From: a virus
Lineage: Duplodnaviria > Caudoviricetes
DNA length: 64,000 bases
IMG/VR virus record: IMGVR_UViG_3300028048_003180
Location: 44,710-108,709 of that record
Direction: 5' to 3' (one strand)
Positions 3,651 through 30,509 of this stretch are shown here, one piece after another (position 1 is the stretch's first letter; every line of letters begins with the position of its first letter). The position numbers and the translations under genes were made by a program. Under the pieces are notes generated by a model. The model was not told where the DNA came from and did not search any database. It saw nothing but the letters and a program-made list of their open reading frames with translations.

Positions 3651-6600
3651 TATTCAATGACATATTCGACACAAGAGACACCAACGTAATAGACGTAGAG
3701 AAGGTTCAGACGGTAAGGGACGTACTGTACGAGGGCAAGTACAATGTTCGTGACTACAGTTCCCAAGTGGAGGTCTATGACCCTGACACGGGGGAAACAT
3801 CATACCTTGCCATAAAGGATGACGGCGGACAGGCACTCAACGTCTGCGTCAAGGTCAACGGGCTTGTGAAGGACCTGTCATACGAGATACAGCCAGCTGA
3901 TGCGGTAGTCGTAGAGATACTGCCCGCTTCATCAGTGAGCAAGACCATCGAGGGAACCCTCGGTACTATATTCACAGTGGTCGGCGGCCTTGCGATGGCA
4001 GTGGGAGCTGCAATGCTCACTGTGGGAACGGGCGGTATAGGACTTGCGGTTGGACTTATGGTTGCCGGTGGACTCCTTGTCGCAGCCGGAACCTACATGA
4101 TTATGGATTCCCTTAAGTTCGACTATCCCGATGAGCAGAAGGCAGGCAAGAGCCTGACGGAAGAGCAGAGGAAAAAACTTGAAGGCGCGACCAACCAGAA
4201 CCTTATTGACATGCCGTTCCCTGTGGTGGTCGGCAAGATTGACGTTACCCCGTACACGGTGGGTACGCAGTACAACGAGCTTGTGTACAATGGCAGTAGC
4301 TGGGACGAATTCTTCGGAAGCAGGATGAGGACGACCCAGCTCCTTGCAATAGGCTACGCACCCCTCCTCCTCAAGGACATTAAGTTTGACGAGCTTGTGT
4401 CAGCCCACAACAACAACAACATACTGAACGGCGAACTCTCGTACCTTAATAATGACAACGACGTTCCCGGACACAGGCCCTCCACGTTCAACGGCAAGCC
4501 GCAGGTGGCTGACATTGAATCCAAGTGGAGGGGCAACAAGGTAAGGATGGAGATTTCCCAGTTCGGAAGGGACAGGAGTATATATCCGTTCACCGTCAAG
4601 CAGCAGAAGGTTGACGCTCCACTCCTCTATTGCTATGACGGACAGTATGCCGAGGTTGCCAATGACAGGCACATATCATGGCAGGGGGCATCGCTCCAGT
4701 GCGGCATGAGGACCAACACCATAAGGTTCTCAGACGGAATTCCCTACAAGGTGGTGGTCGGCATTGACATACCGGGCGGCCTTTGGGAAGCCAACAACAT
4801 AAAGGAAAAGACCGACACAAGGTATTCAAAGATACCAATGAACCTTGTCGTTCAGTGGAGGCCTGTCTACAAGTACATATCTGACAACGGGCTTGACTCT
4901 GCGGGTGCCGCCGGTGACGTTTATGACCGCAACAGGGACGGCTACGGAGTCCTCAGATATTCAGGATGGAGGAATTTCTCCGGCACGTCATACCTTGACG
5001 GAAAGTGGGCTGGCCCGGTCAAGCAGTGTACGTACACGGGCAACTCCCTGTCCTACTTCGTCTACAAGGACGGCAACACCCCGGCCTACAGGGACGGTTA
5101 TTACGGTTACTTCGTAAACAACAGCGGATACACGCTCACGGGAACGTTCCATAAGGTCCAGAAAAAGACTGACGAGGCCACCCTTTACAGGGAAAAATTT
5201 CTTTCCCTCATAAGGGACTGGGAAAGGCAGCATACGACAAGGGAAAGCTACATTAATGCCATATCTCCGACAAAGGGGTACGTCACGGTGGTCAACGAGG
5301 ACGGCACCAGGGCGGTCATGCCGTACCAGGCTTACTGGAAGAGCTATATATACCCGGAGATAAAGGAGTCCGTCCCTGATTCCGTCCGCCTCAGCCTTGA
5401 GGACCAGGCCCGTACATACGCAAGGAACAAGGTGGCCTCGCAGGATGCCGACTGGTGCGCCAGCCACCAGAACTACAACAACGGGACGACGTGGCACAAG
5501 ATGTCGTCACAGGAGATTATCGACTACAGTAATGCGGGCAAACTCAACGTGTCCTTTCATAATGAAAAGCAGAAGACTTGGGTCGGTCCCGGTAACTATA
5601 TCGGAGCACCCCAAGGCTACTGGCATACTGAAACGGTCAGAGTCTACGACTACTCGAGCGCAAGTTCCGACGTTTTAATCCAGAACGGTGTTCCTTACGC
5701 TCAGGACAACCCCTATGCGAATTCAATCGCCCAGATAGAGGTAAATGCAAACAAGGGCCTTTCGGCAGGAACGGGAGCCAACAGCAACCCGACATGGTTC
5801 GGGGTGAGGTGCTTCTCGCTCGGCGAGTTCTCGCTTGGCAAGACGTTCTACCAGAGGGACATGTCGGAACCGAACTTCCAGTCAGCCCTTAATATTGGTG
5901 CGAATGACGTTGACAATGCAAAGGACGAGATGCGCTTCGAGATTTGTGCGGAGCTCACCCAAGAGGACATCCTTGACCTCCTGAACAGGAACCCAAGGTC
6001 CATAAGGGCCGGGGAAGACGGAGAGGTGCCTGAGCTTCTGGGCAAGACGAACTGCATCATAGACTCAATCCAGGTCCGCGTGGTAAGGCTTACCCCCTGC
6101 TATATCGACAACAACAGCGGGGAGATTAAGTACAAATACTCCGATGTCGTCAAGTGGAGCTACTTGAGGACGTACTGCCTTGACAAGCAGAGGCTCCTTG
6201 ACAGCATAGACAACAAGACGGAGGATGCCATAGTCGGCGGCAAGGCAGTCAAGATTGCCCCTATAGACTGCTCCCTTGAGACGTTCGACAGTAGGGACCC
6301 GGACATACATGAGTACCCGACGTGGAACACATGGGACATACTTTCGTTCCGTTCCGTCCCTGTGGCAAAGGAGGACGAGGAGAAGCTGTGCCTCCTTGGG
6401 GTCGAGGCCGAGCCTGACCCGCTGGGTGTCATGTCCGACAGTCTGAACAAGATAAGCCTTACGGCCCATGCCGTCACGCCGTCACTGAGGTCGAACTACA
6501 TACGCTATTGGTATACGGATGGCATTGGCTATTGGAAATATGACTCCTACGACACCCTTGAGACGAAGGATTCAGAGGAGCTTTACCTCACGTTCTCCCA

Positions 6601-9600
6601 GAGGGACTTCAGGTGGAAGCGCACTACTGCGGAGGAATTTACGGAAACACCCAAGTCCGTGCTCAAGAAGAACGGGACTACCCGCGTAGGATACTACTTC
6701 TCTGAAATGCACAACGCATGGGACAAAAAGTGGTTCCCGGCAAAGATTGAGAAGCGGCAGTGCATACAGTACATAACGGATGCCAACGGTGAGATAGTCT
6801 ACAATGAGGCAGGAGACCCGCTCATAGAGATGACGAGGGACGGCAACGACTGGATTCCGTTCATTTACAAGGAGATGGCGAGGAATACCGACTCCCTGGG
6901 AAGGTGGGTTGCAAGCAATGCGTTCCTCAGAACGTTCACGGAGCAGAACTCCATCGGGCAGCTTTTGGGGTTTGCCTGCGGGCAGAGCCTTGGCAGGAAT
7001 GCCTACTTCTACAATTCGCTCAACGACGACAAGTTCATACGGTACTGGTACGACGACGTATCAAAGGGAAAATACTACTACTTCGACACGGACGACACCG
7101 TGCTTGACCTGGAGCACAAGCCTGTATGGAGCGATGAGGGTGACCCTTATGACCTCCCGCAGTGGACTTATGACGGATGGGCGGAAGGTTCGGAAATAGA
7201 GTTCCGCTCCGCCTCACTTACAGAAATCGGCAGCGGTTATTACTACAGCATAAGGAAGGCAGACAACGCCTTCAACATGATGGCCCTCAAGGAAGCCTTT
7301 GAATATACGGAGGCTATAGACATAGGAAAAAGTGCGGTGGGCCCCATCCCGTACAAGTGCAACATGTACATAACGAACCAGCAGAAGGCACTCGCGCTAA
7401 TGCAGACAATTCTTGTCACCGCGAGGGCGTTCTGGTTCTTCGATGAATACGGACGCTTCGAGGTTCACAACGACAAGCCCAAAAAGAACCCTGTCCTTAT
7501 GATAACGGACGAGAACTCCCTCCAGTCGTCGAATACGAGGGACTTTTCAAGGGGAATAGCAGGCTACCACATTACGTTCCAGGATGAGTCCAACGGATTC
7601 CAGACGGGGGAAGTCTACGTACTGAGGGAGGGGCAGACAAGGAACTCCCATACAAGGGATATAATTGACCAGACGATAAACGGCGTTACGAACGCGGAGC
7701 AGGCATGGTGCCTTGGCGCATACATGCTTGCCTGTTCCATAACCCAGAAGGAGTCATGGTCAAGGAAGCTCAACCATGTAGGCGGAAGCCTGACGATAGG
7801 CTCGCTTGTCTCCGTCCAGAGCTCAACCCTTATGATAGGGACTGACACTTCGGGAAGGATTGTAAGGCTTATAGAGGACGAGAATTTCATCTACGGGTTC
7901 ATCTGCGACCTCACCTATGACTACAGGGAAGAGTATGGGCAGAATGGCGAGAACGTACAGGGATGCTCCATCTTCCAGGCAGGGGCAAAGAGTCACTCAA
8001 AGGTTGTAACTCTCAGGTTTGCCAGTGCCGCACAACAGCAGCAGGGAATAACGGTGGAAACGGAGGACCCAGAATACGCAATCAACAGCGGAACATACGC
8101 AAACCTTAAGGGTCAGACGAATCTGGTACTCTTTGAAAAGAAAATAATTAAGCAGACGGAGCGGGAGCTTGAGCAGGGGAATGACGAGGAGACGGGAACC
8201 AAGGTGTTCACCCAGTTCATTCCAAAGCCGGGGGACGTGGTTGCCTTCGGCAACGTAGGCACAATCACGAAGCTTGGTGTCGTCTACCAGCTTTCCTTTG
8301 ACGAAAAGCACCATGTAACTGCCGGGATTTACCCCTATTACGAATCAATCTACCATGCAGGACGCTCACTCCCTGTACTGGAATCGTCCATGACGAAGCT
8401 TCCAAGGAACGACAATGCCCCTGTAGACTTTAGTGCGACATTCTCTGACGTAAGCGCAGCCATAGACGAGGCGAATAAGAATACGGCGGCCGCAATAAAC
8501 GGGCTTGTGAATGGAGGCGGTGACAGCAGTGCCGTGCCTGATGCCCCTGTAATGCTTGAGGCAAAGGCCTTTGAAAAGGAGATTCTGCTTAAGGCCCGTG
8601 CTGACGGTGCAGGCCTTAAGAACAGTGTGGTTGAAGTTGACTGGCAGCTGTTTAAGTGGACACCTGACGTAGAGACTGCGGACGAGAACTTGTGGGACTG
8701 GGAGGACGCGGGCACGACACCTACGCTTAGCGGGGAGTATGTGTTTGACAGGGACACTGACGGCTATCCTGAAAGGGAGGACCTGAACGGGACTGAATCT
8801 GCCTGGTTCTTCAGGTGCCGGATAAAGAATCAGTACGGGAATGACTCTGAATGGAGCCGCAAGATGGCGGTGCAGACCTACAGGTATGGCACTTGGCTGC
8901 TCGGTGCGCCCGCAATAGTGCCGAGAGTTACCAGCAGGTGTGTTACGCTGAAACTTTCCCAGCCACCAAGGGCGGGGGACAGGGAGCAGTACGGAACCGT
9001 TCGCTACAGGATTGAGGTAATGCGCCCTGACATTGATGAAAATTACTTCAAGCCTTCTATTGACCTCAACCCATATGCTGCAGAGGAGAACTACAAGGAC
9101 GGTGAGGGATATGTCATAAGCGACGGTACGTACATACAGGTGATGCCTCTCAAGGGACAGGATTCAGAACTAATAGAAAACACGTTGTACATGTTCCGCG
9201 TAACGGCAGAGAATGAGACCAGTATATCTGAGAGTTCCGTTATAAATGTAATCACTGAATGTGACTCTATACGCGACATAGTGAAGGCCCGTGAGACTGC
9301 AAAGGAAGCCTACATATCACAGCTTTCCGCAATCAGCGCGAACATGGGGTGCATATCAAGCGGTTCTTTCAACGGCTCGGACACAAACTTTTGGGAGCTT
9401 TCCTCTTTTATTGATGATTTTAATGTAAACCATCATGAGGGGGCATTCCGGGTAGGAGGAGTGGACGAATTTCTGCATGTAATTCCTGTTGACGAGGATG
9501 GTAATGACATAACGAGTGATACCCCCGTTTCTGTTGAACCCGCATCGTACCGCATTGAATTTCAGATCGGCAACTTCAAGGTAAAGTCAGACCAGACGAA

Positions 9601-10186
9601 CTTTATCAACGAACTTACCATATACAACGACAAAGACTATTCAGAGCGGCTCTGCGTGTCATACACAGGCTTGCTCAGGCAGGTTCTGCCGGGGGCAACG
9701 TCACCGGACGACTGGGGGAATGCCGCACCCGGAAGCATAACAAGCGTACCTTTCGCAAAGGCGACAAAGGAGGGGAACGCCTGCTTTACAAACGTCCCTA
9801 TTGAAGAGCTTCCGGCTACAAAGCGGTTCGTTACTGGCACCCAGTCGGCCTACAACCTTCAGGATACGGTGACTGACATATACGGGCAGAACCCTGAGAA
9901 TTTAGTCCTTGACCAGGCCAACCTCATAAACACGGCAGAAGGTTGCCCTGTGCTTGTTAATGAAGGAGTCCCCGTCACAAAAGCCTACGAGGGGGAGATA
10001 AAGATAGACAAGGAAAGCAAGTACGTTGCTTACTGGAATAAGGGTGGGGTCAGGTGTGATTCAGGAACCGCAAGGAGCGTATTCGAGGCGGCAAGAGAAG
10101 CCTGGCGAGCCAGCAGGAGTACGGAATGGGGACTGACACAAGAACAGGCCAGCACACTTGACCTTGAAGACATGGAGGAATTATGA
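3635..10186 (+). CDS. Tail tip / central fibre protein (gpI-like N-terminus fused to gpJ-like host-specificity protein), 2183 aa
   Basis: ATG 3635 after GGAGG; ubiquitin-like N-terminus, hydrophobic segment, P.VVG motif, FN3-like repeats, ISQLSAISANMG.I..G C-terminal motif. Confidence 0.8.
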   Translation: MAKVIVFNDIFDTRDTNVIDVEKVQTVRDVLYEGKYNVRDYSSQVEVYDPDTGETSYLAIKDDGGQALNVCVKVNGLVKDLSYEIQPADAVVVEILPASSVSKTIEGTLGTIFTVVGGLAMAVGAAMLTVGTGGIGLAVGLMVAGGLLVAAGTYMIMDSLKFDYPDEQKAGKSLTEEQRKKLEGATNQNLIDMPFPVVVGKIDVTPYTVGTQYNELVYNGSSWDEFFGSRMRTTQLLAIGYAPLLLKDIKFDELVSAHNNNNILNGELSYLNNDNDVPGHRPSTFNGKPQVADIESKWRGNKVRMEISQFGRDRSIYPFTVKQQKVDAPLLYCYDGQYAEVANDRHISWQGASLQCGMRTNTIRFSDGIPYKVVVGIDIPGGLWEANNIKEKTDTRYSKIPMNLVVQWRPVYKYISDNGLDSAGAAGDVYDRNRDGYGVLRYSGWRNFSGTSYLDGKWAGPVKQCTYTGNSLSYFVYKDGNTPAYRDGYYGYFVNNSGYTLTGTFHKVQKKTDEATLYREKFLSLIRDWERQHTTRESYINAISPTKGYVTVVNEDGTRAVMPYQAYWKSYIYPEIKESVPDSVRLSLEDQARTYARNKVASQDADWCASHQNYNNGTTWHKMSSQEIIDYSNAGKLNVSFHNEKQKTWVGPGNYIGAPQGYWHTETVRVYDYSSASSDVLIQNGVPYAQDNPYANSIAQIEVNANKGLSAGTGANSNPTWFGVRCFSLGEFSLGKTFYQRDMSEPNFQSALNIGANDVDNAKDEMRFEICAELTQEDILDLLNRNPRSIRAGEDGEVPELLGKTNCIIDSIQVRVVRLTPCYIDNNSGEIKYKYSDVVKWSYLRTYCLDKQRLLDSIDNKTEDAIVGGKAVKIAPIDCSLETFDSRDPDIHEYPTWNTWDILSFRSVPVAKEDEEKLCLLGVEAEPDPLGVMSDSLNKISLTAHAVTPSLRSNYIRYWYTDGIGYWKYDSYDTLETKDSEELYLTFSQRDFRWKRTTAEEFTETPKSVLKKNGTTRVGYYFSEMHNAWDKKWFPAKIEKRQCIQYITDANGEIVYNEAGDPLIEMTRDGNDWIPFIYKEMARNTDSLGRWVASNAFLRTFTEQNSIGQLLGFACGQSLGRNAYFYNSLNDDKFIRYWYDDVSKGKYYYFDTDDTVLDLEHKPVWSDEGDPYDLPQWTYDGWAEGSEIEFRSASLTEIGSGYYYSIRKADNAFNMMALKEAFEYTEAIDIGKSAVGPIPYKCNMYITNQQKALALMQTILVTARAFWFFDEYGRFEVHNDKPKKNPVLMITDENSLQSSNTRDFSRGIAGYHITFQDESNGFQTGEVYVLREGQTRNSHTRDIIDQTINGVTNAEQAWCLGAYMLACSITQKESWSRKLNHVGGSLTIGSLVSVQSSTLMIGTDTSGRIVRLIEDENFIYGFICDLTYDYREEYGQNGENVQGCSIFQAGAKSHSKVVTLRFASAAQQQQGITVETEDPEYAINSGTYANLKGQTNLVLFEKKIIKQTERELEQGNDEETGTKVFTQFIPKPGDVVAFGNVGTITKLGVVYQLSFDEKHHVTAGIYPYYESIYHAGRSLPVLESSMTKLPRNDNAPVDFSATFSDVSAAIDEANKNTAAAINGLVNGGGDSSAVPDAPVMLEAKAFEKEILLKARADGAGLKNSVVEVDWQLFKWTPDVETADENLWDWEDAGTTPTLSGEYVFDRDTDGYPEREDLNGTESAWFFRCRIKNQYGNDSEWSRKMAVQTYRYGTWLLGAPAIVPRVTSRCVTLKLSQPPRAGDREQYGTVRYRIEVMRPDIDENYFKPSIDLNPYAAEENYKDGEGYVISDGTYIQVMPLKGQDSELIENTLYMFRVTAENETSISESSVINVITECDSIRDIVKARETAKEAYISQLSAISANMGCISSGSFNGSDTNFWELSSFIDDFNVNHHEGAFRVGGVDEFLHVIPVDEDGNDITSDTPVSVEPASYRIEFQIGNFKVKSDQTNFINELTIYNDKDYSERLCVSYTGLLRQVLPGATSPDDWGNAAPGSITSVPFAKATKEGNACFTNVPIEELPATKRFVTGTQSAYNLQDTVTDIYGQNPENLVLDQANLINTAEGCPVLVNEGVPVTKAYEGEIKIDKESKYVAYWNKGGVRCDSGTARSVFEAAREAWRASRSTEWGLTQEQASTLDLEDMEEL

Positions 10187-13100
10187 GCTACGAAGTAACA
10201 TTAGGCAATTATCAGAGCGTAATTGGTGCGCTCCCTGCAAATACAGCATCCACCCCTTATGATGTCGTCATTACGGATGGGGAAAACTTGGCTCCTAATG
10301 TCTTAAGGCCTGTGCAAGCGGCGAAAAGATATGTCAATTTGAGTTTTACCCCGGCAACAGTTGAAAGTGATAGCATCCGTAATCTCTTTAGAGCAGGCAG
10401 TGTCACCTTGTACCTCGTATCATGCGACATGTCAAATCTGGACCTCTCGAACGTTACGGACGCGGTTTCTATGTTTGGGAACGTCAGTCTAAAAACTGTA
10501 GTCTTGCCGCCTATGGAGAATTTAACTACGGCAGCCGAAATGTTTTCTTGGTGTGACTCCCTTGAAAGCATTACTTTGCCTGCCATGCCTGAAGTTACTA
10601 ATGTGGGCGGCATGTTCCAAGTCTGTCGTGCACTCAAAAACATTACTTTGCCTGCTACTATGCCTAAAGTTACAGCGGCATACAGTATGTTCCAGGGGTG
10701 TGAATCCCTTGAAAGCATTACTTTGCCTGCCATGCCTGAAGTTACTAATGTGAAGGGTATGATTTTACAGTGTTCCGCCCTTAAAAAAGTTGACATATCA
10801 GGGCTCGCCTCAGGAACAAATACGGAAAACCTATTTCGGCTTTGCCCGGCCCTTAAGGAAATAACGGTAGCTACCACCAATTACGAAACTTACGTAAGTG
10901 CATTGGATGAAAATACTGCGGCAACGCCCTATGACGTAATTATTGCAGATGATACATTCGACGGTGATGTTCTTTTAAATGATATTTTTTCTTCTATGGT
11001 GCAAAGTGGAAGGTTCGTGAAGATTTCTTTTAGTGGAGGAACTTTTGGTGGTTTTACATTATGTTCAGATTATGCTTATCCAGAATCTGACTACTTGATA
11101 GAATGTGACATGTCATCAATGGCTTGCACGAACCTAATTTATGTTCAGGGTTTTCGCAACTGTAAAAACTTAAAGAAAGTAAAGATGCCTAATATTACAT
11201 CATCAGCCCCATGTACCGCAAATGGATGTTTTTTTGGTTGCGCTTCTCTTACTGAGGTAGAGTTTTTACCAGCAAACTTCGATTTAACTCAAGACATGTT
11301 TTCTCTTTGCAGTTCCCTCGAGCAAGTCGATTTGTCAAAAATACAATTAAAAGATACGGGACGTATGTTCCAAAATTGCACAGCCCTTAAGGACGTAGTT
11401 TTGCCAGATTTGTCAAGTGTATCTTCTGCTGCGTCCATGTTTGTTCGTTGTAGTAATCTTGTCACGGTAGATATATCAACATTAACTGCAGCCGCTAATG
11501 TCTATGATCTTTTTCTTGGTTGCTCCTCGCTTAAAACGGTAGTGTTGCCCGCAAGTATGGCGTCAACGAATGCTAAAGGTATGTTCTACGGTTGTAGTAG
11601 CCTTGAGGATATTACGCTGCCTGTTATGCCTGAAGTTACTAATGCGAATGAAATGTTTTATCGGTGCTCTGCACTCAAGACTGCTGACGTATCAGGGATT
11701 GCGGCAACTGCAGATGTTTCCAATATATTTCAGGAGTGTACGGTCCTTGAGGAGATAACGGTTACTACAGTCAATTATGAAACAATAGTAAGTGCATTGA
11801 ATGAAAACACTGCGGCTACTCCTTATGGCATCGTAATATCAGACGGGGAAAACCTTAGGCCTTCTGCCATGAAGGTGGATGAGACGGGAAGGTACGTCAA
11901 CCTAGGTTTTAGGCCAGCCGTTGTTGAAAGACAAGACATTGAAAGTCTTTTCGATTACAACAGCACAATAACTCATCAGTATCTTATATCATGCGACATG
12001 TCGAACCTTGACATGTCAAATGTTACGTATGCAAAAGGTGCATTCCATTCAAACAAAGGGTTAAAAACTGTTGTCATGCCGTCCTTAAGAAATGTATGGA
12101 ATTCAGCGGAGATGTTCTTAGGGTGTAATGCACTTGAAAACGTTACACTTCCTGACATGTCTAAAGTTACTGATGCAGTAAGCATGTTTTACAACTGTCG
12201 TTCACTTGAACACGTAGACATAGGGACATTCAGAAAACTGGAAGATGCATTAAATATGTTTTGCAGCTGTCATTCCCTTGTAGAAATTGACGCGACAAAC
12301 CTTACGGAACTCACCGATGCAGAGAGTATGTTCGCAGATTGTGGAGCACTTGAAAACGTTACACTTCCTGACATGTCTAAAATTACTAAAGCATCATATA
12401 TGTTTCAAGAATGCCTTTCTCTTGAAAGCATAGACTTATCTCCATTAGAAAATGTCGTAAATGCACGCAGTATGTTTTTTAAATCAGGAATTACAACCGT
12501 AAACATTTCGGGGATGAACAACCTTAAATATGCAGCAAATATGTTCAAGCAATGTGCTTCCCTGGAAAGCGTTGATATTTCTGGTATGGAAAATGTTGAG
12601 GATGCAGAGGAGATGTTCGCCGTCTGCGAAGCGTTGACGCATGTAAACATATCTGGAATGGGAAACGTTACAAATGCCACAGGTATGTTCTTTGGAGACC
12701 AGACCCTTGAGTCAGCTAATTTGACAAGCCTAGTGAGTGCAACTAATGGAGATGGTATGTTTTCCTCCTGTGTCAGCCTAGAAGAGGTTTCAGTTCCGCC
12801 CGCGTTAACCAACGTCAACGGGTTGTTTATGAACTGTCCAGACTTGACTACCGTAAAAAATTTCAAATGGGATTTCTCCAATATGGAGAATACAACCAAC
12901 TGTTTTTCCGGCTGCTCCTCCCTTACCCACCTATACTATTACTCTGACAACGACCCTGCCCTTATAATTCCTAATGACGACTGGCTTCTTTATTATAAGG
13001 GGGGGGCGTCAGCCTCTGAGGGATATACCCTTACGGCTTACGACAGGAAAGGGAATGTGGTACTCTCGGAATCTCTTGGCAGGCCGCAGATTCACCCTAT

Positions 13101-13770
13101 AGGACAGACAAACTCCCTGTTATTCGACACACAGCCAATAGATTGTGCAAACATCATAAAGTCGCCCTACCTCTTCGGAATAAATGACGGCAAGACGCTG
13201 GACGCTGCGGGCGGGACCCTTGCCATACTTGCAAAGGACACTGACAAGATAGTTACGAACATATTTGAAAGCAAGGCTATAAGGGATATGGTGAGCAACA
13301 TCACCCCGGCAGGTATAATCCAGATGTACGGCGGAACTACGGCTCCTGAAGGATGGCTCTTTTGTAACGGAGAGGAAGTCCCTACGGCCCAATATCCGAG
13401 GCTGTACGCCGCAATAGGGAATACGTATGGAACTCCGAAGACGACGGGGAACTTTGTCCTTCCTGATTTCCGCGAATGCGTACCTGTCGGAGCAGGACAA
13501 AGCAACAGGTCAGCCATATCAACCCATGATGTATTCAGCCTCGGCCAATACAAGAATGACTGTATACAGAACATCACTGGATGGGGCACAGGAACCCCCG
13601 TTAATTCTAGTGGTGGGGGAGCATTTTATAGTGACCCGGTAGACTTTGGTGGTTTTGGAGGTGGAAATTACCGTTTTAAGCAGTTACTGTTCGATGCCTC
13701 CCGCCAAGTCCGTACCAGCTCAGTAACACGAACTAAACAGATTGGTACAAACTACATCATTAAGTATTAA
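10183..13770 (+). CDS. Tail fibre with BspA/DUF285-like leucine-rich repeats and C-terminal tail-collar/tip domain
   Basis: Many MFxxCxxLxxIxLP repeats; collar motif PAGIIQMYGGTTAPEGWLFCNG...YPRLYAAIGNTYG...FVLPDFR; ends NYIIKY. Confidence 0.85.
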   Translation: MSYEVTLGNYQSVIGALPANTASTPYDVVITDGENLAPNVLRPVQAAKRYVNLSFTPATVESDSIRNLFRAGSVTLYLVSCDMSNLDLSNVTDAVSMFGNVSLKTVVLPPMENLTTAAEMFSWCDSLESITLPAMPEVTNVGGMFQVCRALKNITLPATMPKVTAAYSMFQGCESLESITLPAMPEVTNVKGMILQCSALKKVDISGLASGTNTENLFRLCPALKEITVATTNYETYVSALDENTAATPYDVIIADDTFDGDVLLNDIFSSMVQSGRFVKISFSGGTFGGFTLCSDYAYPESDYLIECDMSSMACTNLIYVQGFRNCKNLKKVKMPNITSSAPCTANGCFFGCASLTEVEFLPANFDLTQDMFSLCSSLEQVDLSKIQLKDTGRMFQNCTALKDVVLPDLSSVSSAASMFVRCSNLVTVDISTLTAAANVYDLFLGCSSLKTVVLPASMASTNAKGMFYGCSSLEDITLPVMPEVTNANEMFYRCSALKTADVSGIAATADVSNIFQECTVLEEITVTTVNYETIVSALNENTAATPYGIVISDGENLRPSAMKVDETGRYVNLGFRPAVVERQDIESLFDYNSTITHQYLISCDMSNLDMSNVTYAKGAFHSNKGLKTVVMPSLRNVWNSAEMFLGCNALENVTLPDMSKVTDAVSMFYNCRSLEHVDIGTFRKLEDALNMFCSCHSLVEIDATNLTELTDAESMFADCGALENVTLPDMSKITKASYMFQECLSLESIDLSPLENVVNARSMFFKSGITTVNISGMNNLKYAANMFKQCASLESVDISGMENVEDAEEMFAVCEALTHVNISGMGNVTNATGMFFGDQTLESANLTSLVSATNGDGMFSSCVSLEEVSVPPALTNVNGLFMNCPDLTTVKNFKWDFSNMENTTNCFSGCSSLTHLYYYSDNDPALIIPNDDWLLYYKGGASASEGYTLTAYDRKGNVVLSESLGRPQIHPIGQTNSLLFDTQPIDCANIIKSPYLFGINDGKTLDAAGGTLAILAKDTDKIVTNIFESKAIRDMVSNITPAGIIQMYGGTTAPEGWLFCNGEEVPTAQYPRLYAAIGNTYGTPKTTGNFVLPDFRECVPVGAGQSNRSAISTHDVFSLGQYKNDCIQNITGWGTGTPVNSSGGGAFYSDPVDFGGFGGGNYRFKQLLFDASRQVRTSSVTRTKQIGTNYIIKY
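10558..10752 (+). repeat. 48-bp exact direct repeat in LRR region (10558-10605, 10705-10752)
   Basis: tcccttgaaagcattactttgcctgccatgcctgaagttactaatgtg occurs twice. Confidence 0.9.
12130..12381 (+). repeat. 36-bp exact direct repeat in LRR region (12130-12165, 12346-12381)
   Basis: gcacttgaaaacgttacacttcctgacatgtctaaa occurs twice. Confidence 0.9.
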
Positions 13771-14044
13771 TACTTTATAATGTAATTTATACCCAACTCC
13801 TTTGTTCTGGTAACTGAACTTGTCCTTACATTTCTAGAAGCGTCAAAGCTAACAAGTCTTCGAGTTCTGGCGTCATCGTTCATAGTAACTTTAGGGCTCG
13901 TATACTCAAGGTCAGTAAGAGAAAAAGCTCCGTAAGGCTCAAAACCAAAAGGAATATTAGCACTGCCTCCCATGCCGTACATCTTAAATCCGCCAGTGAT
14001 GTTCTGTATACAGTCATTCTTGTATTGGCCGAGGCTGAATACAT
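13529..14044. repeat. Perfect 52-bp inverted repeat (13529-13580 / 13993-14044) flanking a 412-bp putatively invertible segment
   Basis: atgtattcagcctcggccaatacaagaatgactgtatacagaacatcactgg and its exact reverse complement. Confidence 0.95.
13767..14044 (-). other. Silent alternative tail-fibre C-terminal cassette
   Basis: Encodes VFSLGQYKNDCIQNITG-GFKMYG...FDASRNVRTSSVTRTKELGINYIIKY, paralogous to the fibre tip and in frame after inversion; no RBS of its own. Confidence 0.85.
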
Positions 14045-14070
14045 TTTTTTTTGCTTGACATTGGGATTCT

Positions 14071-14099
14071 TTGCAAAAAAAATACCACAATCTTATGAT
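14071..14099 (+). promoter_or_regulatory. Promoter TTGCAA-17-TATGAT with A-tract; leaderless ATG at 14106
   Basis: Consensus-like hexamers 6 nt upstream of ATG; no SD. Confidence 0.6.
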
Positions 14100-14105
14100 G
14101 GTCTT

Positions 14106-15077
14106 ATGCTATCAATAGTAGTTTTGTTTTGTGAGAAAGACATGTGGCATATACCGGGACTGGTACGCCACATGAAGGAAACCTTCAAGGATGAGTACGA
14201 GCTTGTGCTTATAGACAACAGGAAGGACAAATCTACGCCTCCGCCTGACGTAGGATGGCCAGTCTATGAGGCATCAGGGGACGGGACTTTCGAGGGGCGC
14301 AGGTTCTCACTGACGAAATGCAGGGGAAAATACGTCTGGTTCGTGGATGCGGACGACATAACCCTTGACTGGAGCGGTTTTGTAGACCTTGACAGTCAGG
14401 ATGCGGACTTCCTGTTCTTCAATGCGGCGGAGCTCAGGGATGAAAGGTTCGGGCCTATGTACAGCGGTGACATTCCTACATTCCTCATGCAGCAGGGGGA
14501 TGTACTCCATGAGGATATAAGGCTTGAAGTGAACCTGGATTCGTTCCTTCACGTGTACCTCCCGCTCTGGAACAAGTTCATAAGGCTTGATTTTGCAAGG
14601 CGGGTCTATGACATGGTGCCTCCCCTTCCCTCTGTCACAGACCACGAAGACTCCCTTATGAGCGCAATGCTCCTCAAACATGCAGAGTCTGTTTCTGACT
14701 GGACGGACAAGACCATTTACATCTATGACTCAAGGACAAGCACTTCATCGGTTGGAACGTCTCAGACGGTCGCGAAGTATAAGGCACTGAACAAGGGGCA
14801 GCAGAGGCTGCTGGAGTTTGCAAAGGGACACTTTACGGAGAAGGAGTGGTCAGACCTTGGCCTTGACCTGTATTTCTACGGTGACTATTACTGGAGGTTC
14901 CGGAAAATCCAGTCCTTGCCGGAGAAAGTGGAGGTCTTGAGGTTTATTACCGAAGAGTTCAGTTATGAGAACATACTGGGAATGCTGAAGTTTGCAGAGC
15001 AGTTTGACGAGTACAACCGCCGGATTATCATGGAAAGGTGTATCACCCGTTACTGCCTGAAGGATGTAAAGTTCTAA
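14106..15077 (+). CDS. Glycosyltransferase family 2
   Basis: MLSIVV start, ELVLIDN, GKYVWFVDADD (DxD), LWNKFIR, HED motif. Confidence 0.85.
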   Translation: MLSIVVLFCEKDMWHIPGLVRHMKETFKDEYELVLIDNRKDKSTPPPDVGWPVYEASGDGTFEGRRFSLTKCRGKYVWFVDADDITLDWSGFVDLDSQDADFLFFNAAELRDERFGPMYSGDIPTFLMQQGDVLHEDIRLEVNLDSFLHVYLPLWNKFIRLDFARRVYDMVPPLPSVTDHEDSLMSAMLLKHAESVSDWTDKTIYIYDSRTSTSSVGTSQTVAKYKALNKGQQRLLEFAKGHFTEKEWSDLGLDLYFYGDYYWRFRKIQSLPEKVEVLRFITEEFSYENILGMLKFAEQFDEYNRRIIMERCITRYCLKDVKF

Positions 15078-15730
15078 ATCGTCCTGCTGAGGACTCCCAG
15101 TACGCGCCCTACCACCATGAACCTGCACTTGTCATACTCGTCAAGCCTTACCGTGTAAGGGGGGTACCTTGTGTTGTCGCAGGCAACGCTCGTTTCATGG
15201 GGAAGTTGCGAAAGCCTTTTCACTGAAACCTGTCCGCCAAGGCTTACCGCATATAGCCCGTTGGCCGTAACTGCTGACGTTTCGGAGCATATAACAACGG
15301 AGCCGTTGGGAATCGTAGGTTCCATGTAGTCGCCTGAGACCCGGACGCATACCTTGGAGCCGGACGTGGACTCAAGCCATTCGGGTGCAGGAATCCAGAG
15401 TGCCGCCTTCCGCGGGGGAAACAGTTCGTCTGAAAGGACAGGCACGAAAGTCCCGCTTTCAGAGCCGCTGCCTCCTATGACCACAACCCTGTTGTCTTTC
15501 CCTTCAAGAAGGAACTCAACGGAGGTGTCCAGTATCTTGGATATTCTGAGGACTGTATGGGAGTTCGGGTATGAAGCCTGGTGCTTCCAGTCGGAGAATA
15601 CGTTTGAGTTAAGTCCGGCCTGCCTTATGAGCTCATTTTTCGTCATGTTCTTGTCATGCAGGAGTTTCTCTATACGCACGATAAACTCCGGCGGCAGCCT
15701 TTCCTTTTTTTGTTTGTGATTTGTTTCCAT
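15074..15730 (-). CDS. CI/LexA-like repressor (XRE HTH + S24 peptidase domain)
   Basis: HTH ...ISKILDTSVEFLL; VSGDYMEPTIPNG and VKRL; the usual catalytic Ser of GDSM appears as Tyr. Confidence 0.85.
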   Translation of the reverse strand: METNHKQKKERLPPEFIVRIEKLLHDKNMTKNELIRQAGLNSNVFSDWKHQASYPNSHTVLRISKILDTSVEFLLEGKDNRVVVIGGSGSESGTFVPVLSDELFPPRKAALWIPAPEWLESTSGSKVCVRVSGDYMEPTIPNGSVVICSETSAVTANGLYAVSLGGQVSVKRLSQLPHETSVACDNTRYPPYTVRLDEYDKCRFMVVGRVLGVLSRTI

Positions 15731-15858: not shown

Positions 15859-16032
15859 ATGGAGAAAAAGGACTATAATATCATTTTGACCGTAAAGGAC
15901 GTGGCGGAGCTCTTCAAGGTTGAGGAGCAGACCGTCTACCACTGGGCCAACAACGGAACCCTGCCGTCCTTCAAGATAGGCAAGGTCATCCGTTTCAGAA
16001 GGAATGAAATATTTGGAATGCTTGATATTTAA
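15859..16032 (+). CDS. Cro/Xis-like HTH_17 protein (57 aa, not in ORF track)
   Basis: MEKKDYNIILTVKDVAELFKVEEQTVYHWANNGTLPSFKIGKVIRFRRNEIFGMLDI; GAGG upstream. Confidence 0.85.
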   Translation: MEKKDYNIILTVKDVAELFKVEEQTVYHWANNGTLPSFKIGKVIRFRRNEIFGMLDI

Positions 16033-17227: not shown

Positions 17228-17650
17228 ATGTCAAAGAACACAAACATGGTTGTCGTGTCAGGCAACATCGTAAGGGACGTCGAGCTCAATGAGTCACAGA
17301 CTTTAATCCGCTTCTGCATTGCGAACTCCGAGTCAGTGAAGAAGGACGGCAAGTGGGAGGAGTACACCAACTACTTCGACATCAAGGGATTCGGCGGTAC
17401 CGTAAAGCTTGCACCTTACCTTGTGAAAGGTACTAAGGTAATCGTTACCGGATCACTCCATCAGGACAGATGGGAGAAGGACGGCCAGAAGAACAGCCGC
17501 ATTGTCATTAACTGTAGCAGCCTTGAGTTCGGAGGCAACGGAAAGAAGAAGGCTGAAAGCCAGGATGAAGGTGCACCAGCCGGGAGTTCAGGAAGCGGAG
17601 AGTTCAAAGAAGACCTCCCCTGGGATGAAAACGAAGATATTCCCTTCTAA
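17228..17650 (+). CDS. ssb: Single-stranded DNA-binding protein
   Basis: OB-fold N.VVVSGNIVRD...KG..V.V.G.L.QDRW; acidic tail EDIPF. Confidence 0.92.
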   Translation: MSKNTNMVVVSGNIVRDVELNESQTLIRFCIANSESVKKDGKWEEYTNYFDIKGFGGTVKLAPYLVKGTKVIVTGSLHQDRWEKDGQKNSRIVINCSSLEFGGNGKKKAESQDEGAPAGSSGSGEFKEDLPWDENEDIPF

Positions 17651-20621: not shown

Positions 20622-21026
20622 TTATCCTTGATTTTTTATATAATTTTGTAATGTCTTCTCTGAAACATCTCCAATAGTTGAAATAAAATAACCTCTAGTC
20701 CACAAATAATGCTTTCCGCTCCAATAATATCTGGATAAATAAGCATTATGTTTTTTCCATAAATCATAGGTGGAAACAGATTTCAGTTTATTTATCATTT
20801 CATAAATTACTGTTGTTGGAGTTGCCGTTATAAGAAAATGAATATGGTCTTTGTCTATCTCCATAGTCTCTATATGCCATTTATCCTGTAAAGACTCCGC
20901 TCTTTTCATTGAATTTAAAACATCATCTCTGATATCTGTTAAGCATTTTGTTCTGTATTTAGTAGAGAAGATAACATGGTATCTTAGTTTGAATTTTTCG
21001 TGATTCAATGTTTCATATTCACTCAT
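20622..21026 (-). CDS. tnpA: Y1 HUH transposase
   Basis: YHVIFSTKYR, DHIH, LWTRGYF.ST.G, YIKNQG. Confidence 0.95.
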   Translation of the reverse strand: MSEYETLNHEKFKLRYHVIFSTKYRTKCLTDIRDDVLNSMKRAESLQDKWHIETMEIDKDHIHFLITATPTTVIYEMINKLKSVSTYDLWKKHNAYLSRYYWSGKHYLWTRGYFISTIGDVSEKTLQNYIKNQG

Positions 21027-21114: not shown

Positions 21115-22416
21115 ATGTGTAAGACACGAGAAGAGAAAAACAAGCAGATTGCTCAGACAATAAAGGCTACCTATGAGAAAAGAGCCTCTCAGGTTTGTCG
21201 TGTCTTTACAGTAAAGATTCAGGATAATCAACTGTCTAAAGTTCAAAAAGAACAGTTGAAAATGATTTTTGTAGAAGCAAAGTGGTTAAAAAATTCAATT
21301 CTTGCTTGGATAAAAGAAAATCCAGAAAATAAAGTTTGGGATTACGATACAAAGAAGAAGACCATCATTCATAAAGATAAGGATATGAATGATGTCGAAG
21401 TTGAATTGAAATATATTCCTGCCTCTGTGAAGCAGTGTGTTCAATCAGAAATAATTTCAAACATCAGGACAATCATTACATTGCAGAAGAAAGGCTTCCA
21501 GTCTGGCGGGCATCTCAAGTTTGTAAAAGAAGTCTCATCTGTCAATTTCAAACAGTATGGGAAAACCCATAAGATAATATCCTCAAAAAGAATTAAGTTA
21601 CAGGGTATATCAGGTTCTCTGATGGTAAACGGACTCAAGCAGTTCTTGAATAAAAATCTTGAATATGCAAATGCAAAATTACTGAATACACCGCAGGGGT
21701 ATTACGTTCAGTTCACGACTTATGTAGATAAATCGAAGATAGCAAATAAACAGACCAATGGTAAGGTTTTAGGTATAGATTTCGGATGCGAGACATCCTT
21801 CACTACAAGTGAGGGTGAAAAAATCGAAGCTTCAGTTCAAGAAAGTGAGCGTATCAAGCGTCTTTCATTAAGAATGAACAAACGTCAAAAGAAAGGCTCA
21901 AAGAACTGGTGGCGGACAGTGCATCTGTTACGAAAAGAATACCAGAAACTTACCAACCAGAAAAACGACCTTGCCAACAAACTTGTTGCAAAATTCTCTG
22001 AATATGACACTGTTATTATTCAGGATGAACAGCTTAGTAATTGGCATAAAGGCAATCACGGGAAGAAAGTTCAGCGCTCAGTATTAGGAAGAGTAAAATC
22101 AAAGCTTCTTCTTAAGTCTAATGTAGTAGTCCTGTCAAAGAATTGTCCTACGACAAAATTGTGTACAAAATGTGGACAATGGCATGATGAAATGAGAGTT
22201 TGGAACAGGATTTTCAAATGTGACTGCGGAGTTGAAATGGATAGAGATATTCATGCGGCTCAGAATATGGTCTGGTTTTATGAAAATAAAGTAGGTGTGG
22301 GACGCACCAATTTCAAGCGTGTGGAGATTAAAGCACTTGTATCAGAGGCTCTTGCTTCTGGTATCAAACTCGAATCTGTGAAGCACGAAGCTGACATGGC
22401 TTTAGCCTGTCAGTAG
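21115..22416 (+). CDS. tnpB: RNA-guided endonuclease TnpB
   Basis: GIDFG (RuvC-I), IIQDE (atypical RuvC-II), CTKCG..CDCG Zn finger, DRDIHAAQN (RuvC-III). Confidence 0.9.
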   Translation: MCKTREEKNKQIAQTIKATYEKRASQVCRVFTVKIQDNQLSKVQKEQLKMIFVEAKWLKNSILAWIKENPENKVWDYDTKKKTIIHKDKDMNDVEVELKYIPASVKQCVQSEIISNIRTIITLQKKGFQSGGHLKFVKEVSSVNFKQYGKTHKIISSKRIKLQGISGSLMVNGLKQFLNKNLEYANAKLLNTPQGYYVQFTTYVDKSKIANKQTNGKVLGIDFGCETSFTTSEGEKIEASVQESERIKRLSLRMNKRQKKGSKNWWRTVHLLRKEYQKLTNQKNDLANKLVAKFSEYDTVIIQDEQLSNWHKGNHGKKVQRSVLGRVKSKLLLKSNVVVLSKNCPTTKLCTKCGQWHDEMRVWNRIFKCDCGVEMDRDIHAAQNMVWFYENKVGVGRTNFKRVEIKALVSEALASGIKLESVKHEADMALACQ

Positions 22417-22471: not shown

Positions 22472-25400
22472 CTAAAGCTCAATCCTCTGGGTGATTATGT
22501 CCTTCAGTTCCTGAGAGTGGGTAATGAGTACGGTCTTGTCCGCACCTCCCTCCTCATGGACAGTCTCTATCATCTTCAGGTACTTAAGCTTTGAGTCATG
22601 GTCGAGTGCTCCGTCAGTCTCGTCAAGGAACCTTGTCCTGAAACCTGCCGACTGGGAGCGGCTCCTTATGATTGAGAAGGCATGGTAGAGGGCTTCCTTT
22701 ATCCATGTCCCCTCACCTCCTGAAACCCACTCCAAAGGCCTTGTGACGCTTGTTTCCGTGTTTTCAACTAATATGTCAAAAACTTCGATGTAAGCCCCTG
22801 TAGAGCCCTTCCTGAGCGTCTGGAAGGATATTTTGAACTTGTCTCCGTATGCTGATTCCAGTATGCGGTTCGTTATGTCTGCAACGTCAGGAGCGGCGGC
22901 TTCAAGCTCCAGTGCCTGTATGCCGTTTGCTCCGAAGGCCCGCTCAAGAAACTCCCATTCAGTCTGCTCGTGCACAAGGGTTTCCCTTTCTTCCTTTAGC
23001 TGCTCATTAGTTTCTTTTGCTTCTTTTAGCTGGGCAGCTTCCTGTGTTATCTTGCCTGACTCTACGAGCAGTTCCTGGAGTTCACCTTCGGCAGAGGTAA
23101 GGGAATCTTCTACGGACTTCATCTTTCCGGCAACGTCAGGGCCCAAACCTTCCTTCTGCTTCTTCAGCTGGGACAGTTCCTTTTCAAGCGTTGATGTCTT
23201 CTTGGTGTATACTGACAGGTATTCGTTCAGGGCATTTAAGTCTGTAGACTCGGCTTCCATCTTCAGGAGGGAGGCTTCGTCCGGGATTCCGAGTTCAGAG
23301 ATTTCTTTTTCGTCCTTTTCGTTCTCTCTCTCCAGCCACTTGACCCCTCGGTTGGTGTCGGCCAATTCTTTGGCTATAAGGTCATGGGCTTCCTGTGCTG
23401 CAAGGAGCATTGACTCTGCCTTTTCAAGAGCCTTGCGGTTCTTTACAGCCTGCTTTTCCAGTTCTGCAACCTTTTCGGCAGGGAGTTTCTGTCCACAGGT
23501 AGGGCACGTGTCTGCTATGTCAGTGACCAGGTTCCTCTTTGCCGTAACGTCCGCCTTCGCGTCCGCAAGATTCGTGTAGGCTTCCTTTTCCTTTGCTTCC
23601 AGGCTTCTTACCTCTTCCCTGTTGGCATCCAGGAGTGGCTGCCTTTCACTTATTCTATTGCGTATGGAATCTGCCTTTTCGAGAAGAGGCTTTATTTTTT
23701 CGTACTTGCCGAAGTTTTCCTTCTTACTTGTGTAGGTTGCAAGGAGCCCCTTCGTTTCAAGGAGCTGCGATTCCTTCTCGCGGATTTTACTGTCTACATC
23801 AGTTCCTGAATCCGTTTTCTTCAGGCCGTCAAGCTCTGCATTGAGTTTTTTGATTTCATCCCGCAGGACCTTTATGCGCTTGTCAACTTCCTTTCCGTGA
23901 GCAAGGACTTCCTTTATCATTGCGTCGTAATCCGAATCGTCAATGAGGGTTTCCTTTTCCGTAATCTTGGCCTTGAGTTCCTTTGACTTCTCCCTTGAGG
24001 CGGCTGATATTTCAGAGGCAGATTCAGTGCCGAGCAGGGAGTTGAAGAAGCTTTTCTTTTCACCTTTTGTCGCTGATGCAATGTCAGTTACGCTTCCCGT
24101 GTTTCCCTTTGTGTAGAATACGGTGCGCAGGAACAGTTCTATTGAACCGAATGTGTTGACCACCCATTCATTGTACTGGTCAACGTTACCGTCCAATCCG
24201 TCAACAGGGTTGAGGTTGTCGGGGTTTTCCCCTGTGAAGGCAAACGCTTTTACCTTGCCGCTTTTGTTCTTGCCGTCGATGTCAATTCTTATGCGGTAGT
24301 ATGTCCCGCCTTCGTCAACGTAAAGGAGTTCCCTGTATGAGTCACGGAGGAAGAAGTGGTCTTGTAAACGTCCGTTCCTTGTAAGCATACGGAGGTACGG
24401 CTGGCAGTTCTCAATAAGGGTGGAATTATGACTAATATATCCACTTGAATAAAACTGATGAGTAGAGGGAATTGTAAAGTCGTAAACAATTTTCTTATCA
24501 TTAAATACTTCTTTTTTTGTAATTTTTGAAAAGAAATAATTCTTTGAAAGTATTAATTTGAACAAACTGTTTAGTTCTTTTACTTCTGGTATTTCACTGT
24601 TATCAGACAATGATTTCAGTAATTCAAGTTTTTTATAGGAGATATTATATTTTTTTTGGAAAAGCCGACTCGGTAAAGGTGTAATATATATCTTGCCATT
24701 TTCGGAGTGAAAATGTCCATTATGTAAAACAGTTAGTTTTTTTCTTATATAAGGATTTATATAAGGAATAATATCTTTATTTGGATTAACATCCTTCGTT
24801 CTTTTATAATTGTATTTTAATGACTTATTTATTAAACAAATCAAATTTTCAACATTCAAAGAACGGACTACAATTTTGTGATAAATCCAATCATAAGATT
24901 TTACCTTTTTTAACCCATGAGTAGATACTATTCCAAAGTTAAGTAACATATTTTGAACCGAATTCGCAATTTGCTTACTGGCAGTTGAAAATTCAAAATA
25001 ATCGTTACATAAACATCCGTCACAGTCAAACAATGCTGTTAAAAAAGCGACTTGCTCTTCTTTCGTGCCTTGTAAAATACAATTCGGAATAATTTTGTAA
25101 CGGGCAGTTGTAAGAGCTTCGTTAAAAATATATTCCAAAAACTGTCTTATTACGGAAGAGAAAATTCTAAGATTTGAATCTTTCTGAAGATTTGTAGGCT
25201 TGGAAATATTTATATTAAACAATGATTTGACTGTTTTAATATAATCATCTGCTATCTTTTTATTTTTCGTTGAAAACTGGATAGAGTTTCCTGTATGAGA
25301 TCCGTTTGCAATGTAATATCCCAAAAATTTTGCCAACTGAATTGACATCTTTGTAGGAAGATTCACCTTATTTGTACTTCTCCACATAAATGGAGAAAAA

Positions 25401-26556: not shown

Positions 26557-27279
26557 CTATAAAGTTACTTCTATCCAACCTCCGCAGTGCGTCTCCCCGA
26601 AGTTCTTCGGAGGCACTGAGCCGGAGTACCAGCACGGGGTTTTCAACCCCTTCACTTTCATCCTTCCGTGTATGTGTCCGCAGGCTATGTAGTCAGCCTC
26701 CATACTGTCGAGTACGGAGAGCGGCATTACCGTTCCGCCGTCCCCTACTTCCACACCGTTCTGGTAGGTACACCCTTCTATCTCGCCGTGGAACATTACT
26801 ATGTGATGCTTTTCACCGTTATCCTTCTTTGAGCCTTCAGCTATATCCTTGTACCACTTCTGGATCTGGGAGTGTTTCTCCTCAATATCCTTTCCGCTGA
26901 AAAAGGACAGCCTTGGCTCAGGGATGACAGTCAGTTTTACATCGGGAAAAATAAGGTAGCTTCCGGCATCCTTACAGTCATAGACTTTTACATTGGGCAT
27001 TATGGAGAAGCACTCAAGGGAGCCGTCCGCCTCATGCGTCGGGGTTCCGTATATCATGTAGCACTCCACGACCTCCTGCAAGTCAAAGAAAGCCCTGAGT
27101 ATGCGGTTGAACCCGCTCTGTGCGGAGTTTGAGATGGTGAAGTCCCAGAAGTCTCCGGCAAAGAGGATGAAGTCCACACCACCCTCAAGGCATCTTTCCT
27201 TGAGGGTGGTGAGCACCTTGAGGGTTTCCTCAAGGCGTGATGTGGAAGCATGTATGTCAGCTATGTGTATGAACGTCAT
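26557..27279 (-). CDS. sbcd: SbcD/Mre11 metallophosphoesterase (nuclease domain only)
   Basis: HIADIH, AGDFWD, GTPTH, FHG, CGHIH, YSGS...FGE. Confidence 0.88.
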   Translation of the reverse strand: MTFIHIADIHASTSRLEETLKVLTTLKERCLEGGVDFILFAGDFWDFTISNSAQSGFNRILRAFFDLQEVVECYMIYGTPTHEADGSLECFSIMPNVKVYDCKDAGSYLIFPDVKLTVIPEPRLSFFSGKDIEEKHSQIQKWYKDIAEGSKKDNGEKHHIVMFHGEIEGCTYQNGVEVGDGGTVMPLSVLDSMEADYIACGHIHGRMKVKGLKTPCWYSGSVPPKNFGETHCGGWIEVTL

Positions 27280-30137: not shown

Positions 30138-30152
30138 ATCAAACCTCCTTGA

Positions 30153-30509
30153 TTAACCGAACAACCTTTTCTTCAGACGTATGAGTTCAATCAACCCGAA
30201 TACTGCCGGAACGAAAAGCCAACTCGTAACTATTTTCCAAACAACACTTTCCACAAGCCATTGAATAGACATCCACATATCAGGAGTAAAGAGAGTGAAC
30301 AAGCCGAACCAAGGACGCTTGTACCAGATTACGACAAGAACTATCATAACAGTCTTGAGTACAGGATTTATAAACGGATTCCAACTCCTTAGCTCCGTAG
30401 TGAACACTACCGGGGATGCTATGTCCACGAGCACCGTGACCACCTCCAAATAAATAAAGACTGCCGCAACGATTGCAAGCAGTCCCATTATAAAGTTTAT
30501 CAAAGGCAT
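30153..30509 (-). CDS. Membrane protein
   Basis: Highly hydrophobic, 118 aa; GGAGGAG SD. Confidence 0.7.
   Translation of the reverse strand: MPLINFIMGLLAIVAAVFIYLEVVTVLVDIASPVVFTTELRSWNPFINPVLKTVMIVLVVIWYKRPWFGLFTLFTPDMWMSIQWLVESVVWKIVTSWLFVPAVFGLIELIRLKKRLFG

Follow-up and report, generated by a model that had tools for sequence, protein, structure and literature searches.

Architecture of the Fiber-Tip Locus

The stretch of DNA analyzed here, referred to as the window, comprises 64,000 nucleotides (nt) of a virus (Duplodnaviria; Caudoviricetes) and corresponds to positions 44710-108709 of the 108,709-base IMG/VR virus record IMGVR_UViG_3300028048_003180 (G000); the element under study is the 3' end of its tail-fiber gene, where two alternative fiber tips lie between inverted repeats. 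The gene for this tail-fiber or receptor-binding protein (10183-13770, plus strand) is an open reading frame (ORF) of 1195 residues, with Pfam matches to N-terminal BspA-type leucine-rich repeats (LRR) of the LRR_5/DUF285 type (LRR_5, 2.3e-58) and to the Phage Tail Collar domain (PF07484, 1.8e-19) at residues 1044-1100. A repeat scan placed the left arm inside this gene (13529-13580, plus strand), where it encodes (D)VFSLGQYKNDCIQNITG as originally predicted, and the right arm at 13993-14044 (minus strand), where it heads a silent cassette. The 52-nt arms are 100% complementary, with 412 nt between them, and are the sole two copies in the whole 108.7-kb record, which confirms the perfect inverted repeat of the original prediction; by our estimate, about 1e-22 such repeats would be expected by chance in 64 kb.

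The invertible segment (13581-13992, 412 nt) consists of two tip-coding cassettes only, without a spacer. Tip A (13581-13770, plus strand), the tip expressed now, supplies the last 62 residues of the fiber and its stop codon, while tip B (13767-13992, minus strand) is a silent cassette of 74 residues and a stop with an intact frame; the minus-strand frame carrying the right arm and tip B spans 13767-14090. The two tips are paralogous (51% identity over 95 residues, E = 8e-24) and do lie tail to tail, as had been described, with overlapping TAA stops (plus strand 13768-13770, minus strand 13767-13769) contained in a 14-nt palindrome, AAGTATTAATACTT (13762-13775), that arises from two opposed K-Y-stop ends. 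Inversion of 13581-13992 in silico yielded an open, in-frame fiber ending in tip B and lengthened from 1195 to 1207 residues, in agreement with the claim of an in-frame tip swap. The swapped parts measure 62 and 74 residues, but the last 26 of these are nearly alike, so that about 36-48 residues truly change. No promoter-like site facing tip B was detected on the minus strand within 13300-14300; promoter-like sites for the next gene (14055-14099, plus strand, consensus match only) lie just beyond the right arm.

The dyad CTGTATACAG, to which the original prediction drew attention, is indeed present in the arm at 13560-13569. We give it no weight and rejected it as a crossover site, since a 10-nt palindrome in 52 nt has a chance expectation of about 4% by our estimate and the dyad is not kept as a conserved feature in the sister phage described below. 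As a separate observation, in a read-through late transcript of 13529-14053 the arms would make a 52-bp perfect RNA duplex followed by nine U (14045-14053), which might bear on mRNA stability or termination; the U run is not conserved in the sister phage.

A profile of the last 195 residues of the fiber matched the short tail fiber of PDB entry 9CUY (1.7e-6) and T4 gp12 (1OCY, 4.3e-6), with an alignment that covers the collar domain and head and extends as far as the …IIK motif at the C-terminus. In gp12, the counterpart of the arm is the strand at the metal site, where HxH serves in metal binding. The window fiber differs from gp12 in lacking HxH and having QNITG in its place, which resembles the RNITG of 9CUY, and in its N-terminal part, which is of the BspA-type LRR kind; H-x-H is present at the QNITG place in the relatives L011, L015, and L152. 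The locus marks about 40 residues of a gp12-like head that the phage family appears to treat as a specificity determinant.

Identical Arms around Old Tips

The two tips share a 26-residue C-terminus, FDASRxVRTSSVTRTKxxGxNYIIKY, in which 17 of the 22 codons for the same residue differ, whereas the 16 full codons in the arms show no difference (Fisher P = 1e-6). The synonymous differences in this C-terminus show that the tips are old paralogs under purifying selection, the silent tip included, and the contrast between tip and arm codons indicates that the identity of the arms owes to something other than recency.

The same design was found in a sister phage, the IMG/VR contig 3300031760_000062 (L015 and L100 are this one contig), which is syntenic with the window across a 2187-residue protein, the fiber, a gene resembling a GT2 glycosyltransferase, an S24 repressor, a single-stranded DNA-binding protein (SSB), and a radical-SAM gene, with flanks of about 77% nucleotide identity. 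Its arms are likewise perfect but 57 nt long (L015 10340-10396 and 10831-10887), enclosing 434 nt in which two tips of other types than those of the window lie tail to tail with overlapping stops, and the in-silico flip is again in frame (871 to 891 residues). Six of 13 same-residue tip codons differ in the sister, compared with 0 of 19 arm codons (P = 0.002). The sister arms occupy the same codons as the window arms, yet only 29 of 57 nt (51%) are identical between the phages, and only 8 of 19 at third codon positions. Both silent tips have stayed intact across this divergence. Judged by these codon comparisons, the arms are under concerted evolution, with identity maintained within each genome and not inherited.

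Relatives with and without an Invertase

Relatives were found by a metagenome scan with a collar-tip alignment, followed by repeat and ORF scans. Loci L149, L152/L175, L130, and L135 carry more distant fibers of the same tip family, and each of their cassettes opens with some 23 conserved nt, CGGTCGGACARTTTAARGAYGA, which encode (P/T)VGQFKDD, the homolog of the motif SLGQYKND of the window; after the cassettes stands a serine recombinase of 227-244 residues (MIYGYIRVST…). L152 and L175, whose flanks are 99.9% identical, represent one phage recovered from two samples and hold 5-6 gp12-like tip cassettes (L152 7142-8408; L175 1-1450) beside a 228-residue serine recombinase (L152 8391-9077). Cassette PVGQFKDDQFQSHVHNS lies on opposite strands in the two, and because it is found in both orientations, the motif is a real crossover region in this tip family; by the same comparison, L152/L175 appears as a natural multi-inversion shufflon. 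The left arm of the window sits at the motif that forms this cassette boundary.

In the invertase-run relatives, identity between cassettes ends after about 23 nt and synonymous differences start directly outside, whereas in the window identity extends about 14-17 nt further on each side. The window and L015 each match a 21-nt stretch of the relatives' site (the CGGTCGGACARTTTAARGAYGA region) at 16 of 21 positions, much of which is forced by the shared amino acids, and a comparison across the arms of all loci gave no convincing shared core motif beyond such codon-forced matches. L135 (5431-8212) has its serine recombinase gene (6162-6845) between two inverted-repeat systems, with arms of 20 nt (5431/6076) and 50 nt (7421/8163); the two systems swap C-termini in two different tail proteins.

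The old tips, the sister design, and these flipping, invertase-run homologs argue for a maintained switch as against chance, relic, or artifact, and along with the concerted arms and the selection on the silent tip they lend support to the tip-switch reading of the original prediction. We consider it quite likely that the switch is functional. A frozen relic, in which the invertase has been lost, no flipping occurs, and the arms are perfect through occasional conversion without crossover or through recent acquisition, would accord with the single orientation ever seen, with the presence of another gene in the invertase slot of both sister phages, and with the fibers of L011, L012, and L189, which manage without a silent tip (neither an inverted repeat nor a second tip was found in them). 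We nevertheless regard it as improbable. The sisters, diverged by about 23% in their DNA, keep intact silent frames, motifs, and perfect arms where a dead cassette should have decayed, and it is hard to see how a relic would allow each lineage, as the two diverged, to preserve both the perfection of its own arms and the integrity of its own silent tip. Moreover, the synonymous-only divergence of the tip B C-terminus shows purifying selection on a frame without a promoter of its own, and any process capable of arm conversion is also capable of a crossover between the arms.

Several further observations concern these and other fiber loci. In L011 (10712-11971), L012 (4727-5986), and L189 (4582-5841), a conserved 419-residue protein with an N-terminal winged helix-turn-helix domain (HTH_29) and no other known domain stands tail to tail with the same-family fiber. 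At L157 (6641-8355), a 431-residue fiber exchanges its C-terminus in frame through 35-nt perfect inverted repeats (7565/8321), giving 445 residues after the flip; this 13-kb locus showed no recombinase-sized candidate and may be another invertase-less case with an unrelated fiber type. In the other cattle-gut runs X17, X18, and X2, relatives match the fiber body and the GT2 gene but differ from 13493 to about 14071-14130, the X18 relative reading …NGQSTRAILS… after 13493; since the flanks match while the tip region differs, the tip module appears to be exchanged between relatives as well.

Orientation of the Locus

At about 30x, both long assemblies show the locus in a single orientation, always with tip A, which fits rare flipping in the lysogen. 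The run data consist of k=31 contigs, in which a 52-nt repeat is not resolvable, and are therefore uninformative on orientation. In the probable source run the contigs break at both arm ends, and the depth of the arm is 58 as compared with 30-32 in the flanks and interior; because the depth is thus doubled, the repeat is truly two-copy.

An absence of any switch, the repeat being an assembly artifact or tip B an independent small minus-strand gene that resembles a fiber end, is scarcely credible. The breaks of the k=31 contigs at the repeat and the annotation of a 71-residue minus-strand ORF by gene callers can be cited for it. An artifact, which the original prediction had named as what would overturn it, is contradicted by the arm depth, by the difference between the tips, which are therefore not a mirrored duplicate, and by the recurrence of the layout in two long assemblies and in an independent sister phage, while an independent gene is at odds with the conserved frame continuity across the arm and the conserved overlapping stops.

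Database searches returned one form of each fiber. A search with residues 1000-1195 of the window fiber gave the native protein alone at 100%, a tip B query against longer proteins gave the native fiber only, and the GT2 protein and the 71-residue tip B ORF, each looked up by exact sequence, were found on one contig only. The exact 52-nt arm had no match in IMG/VR, a scan of GTDB genomes gave nothing close, and the fiber database search yielded no flipped form of the sister fiber. Among the loci compared, both orientations turned up solely in the invertase-bearing L152/L175.

Search for a Recombinase

The window belongs to a prophage of about 111 kb in a cattle-gut bacterial host, and both of its attachment (att) ends could be defined: attL and attR are marked by a 25-bp direct repeat, GGAGTTCGATCCTCCCATCGCTCAA, located where one tRNA gene of a three-tRNA cluster has its 3' end (L097 9889-9913; L180 ~6900), and on the right the prophage runs about 2.2 kb further than the IMG/VR record. 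Genes for CsrA, FliW, flagellin, and FlgK lie in the host flank. No candidate serine recombinase (PF00239, PF07508) was found in the 108.7-kb record, and tblastn with the invertases of four relatives had no match in the host flanks or in either phage record (G000 and L015/L100). Precomputed Pfam tables over the whole prophage list a single tyrosine integrase, which is at the left end, along with four TnpB and one IS200 TnpA, with no other recombinase or reverse transcriptase, and none was seen in about 17 kb of host flank (~10 kb left, ~7 kb right). The statement of the original prediction that the 64 kb hold no serine or tyrosine recombinase is thus correct, and the absence of an invertase holds beyond the window, for the whole prophage.

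The tyrosine integrase (G000 1-1155), the sole PF00589 match, lies 44.7 kb left of the window and about 57 kb from the switch. That it doubles as the invertase seems very improbable to us. It is the sole conventional recombinase of the prophage, the sister record carries one as well, and an HTH_17 excisionase-like gene (15859-16032, plus strand) stands 1.8 kb from the switch, but the att core, the tRNA-end repeat, has at most 8 nt in common with the arm, and we know of no integrase that also runs a fiber switch.

The slot held by the invertase in the relatives is occupied in the window by a divergent GT2 glycosyltransferase (14106-15077, plus strand; weak direct Pfam match), which is conserved at the same place in L015. 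The possibility that this neighbor is a hidden recombinase was ruled out, as those of its 224 homologs that were scanned are bona fide PF00535 members. A diversity-generating retroelement or reverse transcriptase was likewise rejected as an alternative diversifier, no such family occurring in the precomputed Pfam tables.

Candidates for a homology-driven exchange are encoded by the phage itself, and we count them in favor of such a mechanism: a Rad52/Rad22-family single-strand annealing protein (Sak-like; 27883-28560, minus strand), the candidate flip helper named by the original prediction and verified here as a real gene (PF04098, E = 2.6e-21); a metallophosphoesterase (26557-27279, minus strand) that is a candidate SbcD/Mre11-like nuclease of the recombination module; and SSBs, one of them at 17228-17650 (plus strand, precomputed PF00436).

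How the Switch May Be Flipped

Both the flipping of the locus and the enzyme responsible for it are matters that we infer from sequence. Our favored, though tentative, reading is that the locus is a two-cassette, gene-altering inversion switch for the distal head of a T4-gp12-like fiber, with an exchange that relies on arm homology. In this view, the invariant part of the fiber would terminate with a conserved strand (…HDVFSLGQYKNDCIQN…), of which a reversed copy lies behind a promoterless second tip, so that recombination between the 52-nt copies would invert the 412 nt, join the other tip in frame, and change about 40 residues of the head. The design would derive from tip shufflons of several cassettes, operated by a serine invertase encoded next to them, with the glycosyltransferase gene filling the invertase slot in the window lineage. 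The exchange could proceed through general recombination or replication template switching, by host RecA and/or the phage module of Rad52-type annealase, SSB, and nuclease (the Sak or RecA route of the original prediction is plausible), and homology-driven exchange or gene conversion would keep all 52-57 nt identical. With no more than tentative confidence, we further envisage a recombinase-free switch in a lineage that discarded the serine invertase of its ancestors and which flips by the homology of its 52-57-nt arms, perhaps mainly during lytic replication, with the prophage standing one way.

Four lines of evidence favor an exchange that depends on homology. The whole 52-57 nt are identical in two lineages, synonymous sites included, which gene conversion can bring about and conservative site-specific exchange cannot; the arms reach well past the ~23-nt site of the invertase-run relatives; the arms of the sisters are too different for one site-specific enzyme; and the assemblies at about 30x pass in one orientation. 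Several points weigh against this account. Systems without an invertase are not alone in having long perfect arms, as L135 has 50 nt beside a serine recombinase. To our knowledge, no homology-driven tail-fiber switch has been established experimentally, and 52 nt is short for RecA. Repeats of at least 44 bp are typical of verified programmed inversions, mostly with recombinases (PMC9881135). No flipped copy of the window phage or of its sister is on record in the databases, and the sister record ends before the place expected for a Rad52 gene. Finally, the host genome was seen for about 17 kb of flank only, which makes an invertase acting in trans a possibility, if a somewhat doubtful one.

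Such an enzyme, whether an orphan invertase of the host or the invertase of a co-resident prophage, would flip the same switch as a site-specific recombinase, and we view this as conceivable but somewhat doubtful. RecV of Clostridioides difficile and Mpi of Bacteroides act on many distant sites, and Gin, Cin, Pin, and Hin complement each other. The host is flagellated, with a CsrA-FliW-flagellin locus, and genomes of flagellated bacteria commonly hold several recombinases. The arms, furthermore, lie exactly on the crossover-region motif of the invertase-run homologs, with the 16/21 match in both the window and L015; long arms occur beside an invertase too, in L135; and there are documented invertible regions that have no recombinase gene close by (PMC9881135). 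On the other hand, the 16/21 match is largely codon-forced, and at the 10 positions conserved between the arms of two invertase subfamilies the window agrees at only 4 and L015 at 7. One enzyme would hardly serve sister arms that are 51% identical, conservative exchange does not homogenize beyond its site and yet 52-57 nt are perfect, and the host flank in view holds no such gene.

Comparison with Known Inversion Systems

The join of a constant N-terminal part to alternative C-terminal parts by inversion is the same as in Mu G/Gin, P1 and P7 C/Cin, e14 P/Pin, and p15B Min, where inverted repeats lie inside the gene and the outcome is a change of host range. The window shares with these systems the alternative C-terminal parts between inverted repeats, in frame, and within its tip family the adjacent serine recombinase is found in L149, L152/L175, L130, and L135; what the window lacks, anywhere in the prophage, is a serine invertase and hence an enhancer. 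It also differs from Mu S/P1 S in that its fiber is of the gp12/collar type and its segment consists of two tips (412 nt) and no chaperone genes. Sites of the Gin/Cin/Pin/Min type measure 26-34 bp, and the arms of the window measure 52 nt as against the ~23 nt of its relatives' sites. The contrast with shorter sites that the original prediction drew holds only in part, because at least 44 bp is typical of verified gene-altering inversions (PMC9881135).

R64-type shufflons, in which the tyrosine recombinase Rci acts on PilV tips, are similar in that C-terminal adhesin tips are swapped at in-gene repeats, and the multi-cassette L152/L175 resembles one. The window differs in having no adjacent Rci-like gene, two cassettes, and two copies of a 52-nt repeat, the repeats of the R64 shufflon being 19 bp. 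There is a precedent in another gene family for inverted repeats of tens of bases that flip without the dedicated enzyme, although those loci still carry a dedicated recombinase and no phage fiber case is established.

A catalog of gene-altering programmed inversions includes tail fiber and tail collar proteins, tail fiber targets being enriched (Milman et al., NAR 2023; PMC9881135). Its predictors are a repeat of at least 44 bp, a distance between coding sequences of at most 2588 bp, and a truncated ("asymmetric") second coding sequence that starts at the repeat (PMC9881135), and the window shows all of them, with its 52-nt repeat, overlapping stops, and silent frame running from the arm. The verified cases of Milman et al. 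rest on intra-species or long-read variation, whereas the window is known from one orientation, and a recombinase gene is found close to most of their loci (PMC9881135). To this the window adds what appears, from comparison of the loci, to be an evolutionary series within one tip family, from an invertase-run shufflon to an invertase-less pair with long arms.

Fiber flip switches are textbook examples and are understood as invertase-driven. Here, one tip family occurs in two states, one with ~23-nt sites and an adjacent serine invertase, the other, seen in two diverged sister phages, with no invertase in a prophage whose two ends are defined and with arms more than twice as long and perfectly identical. 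The pair should make it possible to distinguish cleanly whether flipping depends on how long and how identical the arms are or on a core site. If the exchange is driven by homology, phages may keep host-range bet-hedging without a dedicated enzyme, and searches that require a nearby recombinase would under-count switches, which matters for host range in gut and rumen viromes. If instead a host invertase acts, the host range of the phage would depend on which recombinases its host possesses.

Other Features of the Prophage

Beyond the glycosyltransferase gene, a CI/LexA-type repressor with helix-turn-helix and Peptidase_S24 domains (15074-15730, minus strand) was identified by Pfam, as was the small HTH_17 protein mentioned above; two such excisionase-like genes are present, at opposite ends of the early regions. 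Three SSB genes occur in this one prophage, at 17228-17650, 41084-41410, and 63584-64000 of the window. An IS200/IS605 element in the window comprises TnpA (20622-21026, minus strand) and TnpB (21115-22416, plus strand), and with further TnpB genes at G000 7158-8354, 13286-14527, and 29895-31148 there are four TnpB in total, all on the plus strand. Adjoining the metallophosphoesterase and Rad52-family genes, a minus-strand gene at 22472-26290 encodes a 1272-residue protein whose sequence is broken by an intein bearing a LAGLIDADG homing-endonuclease domain.

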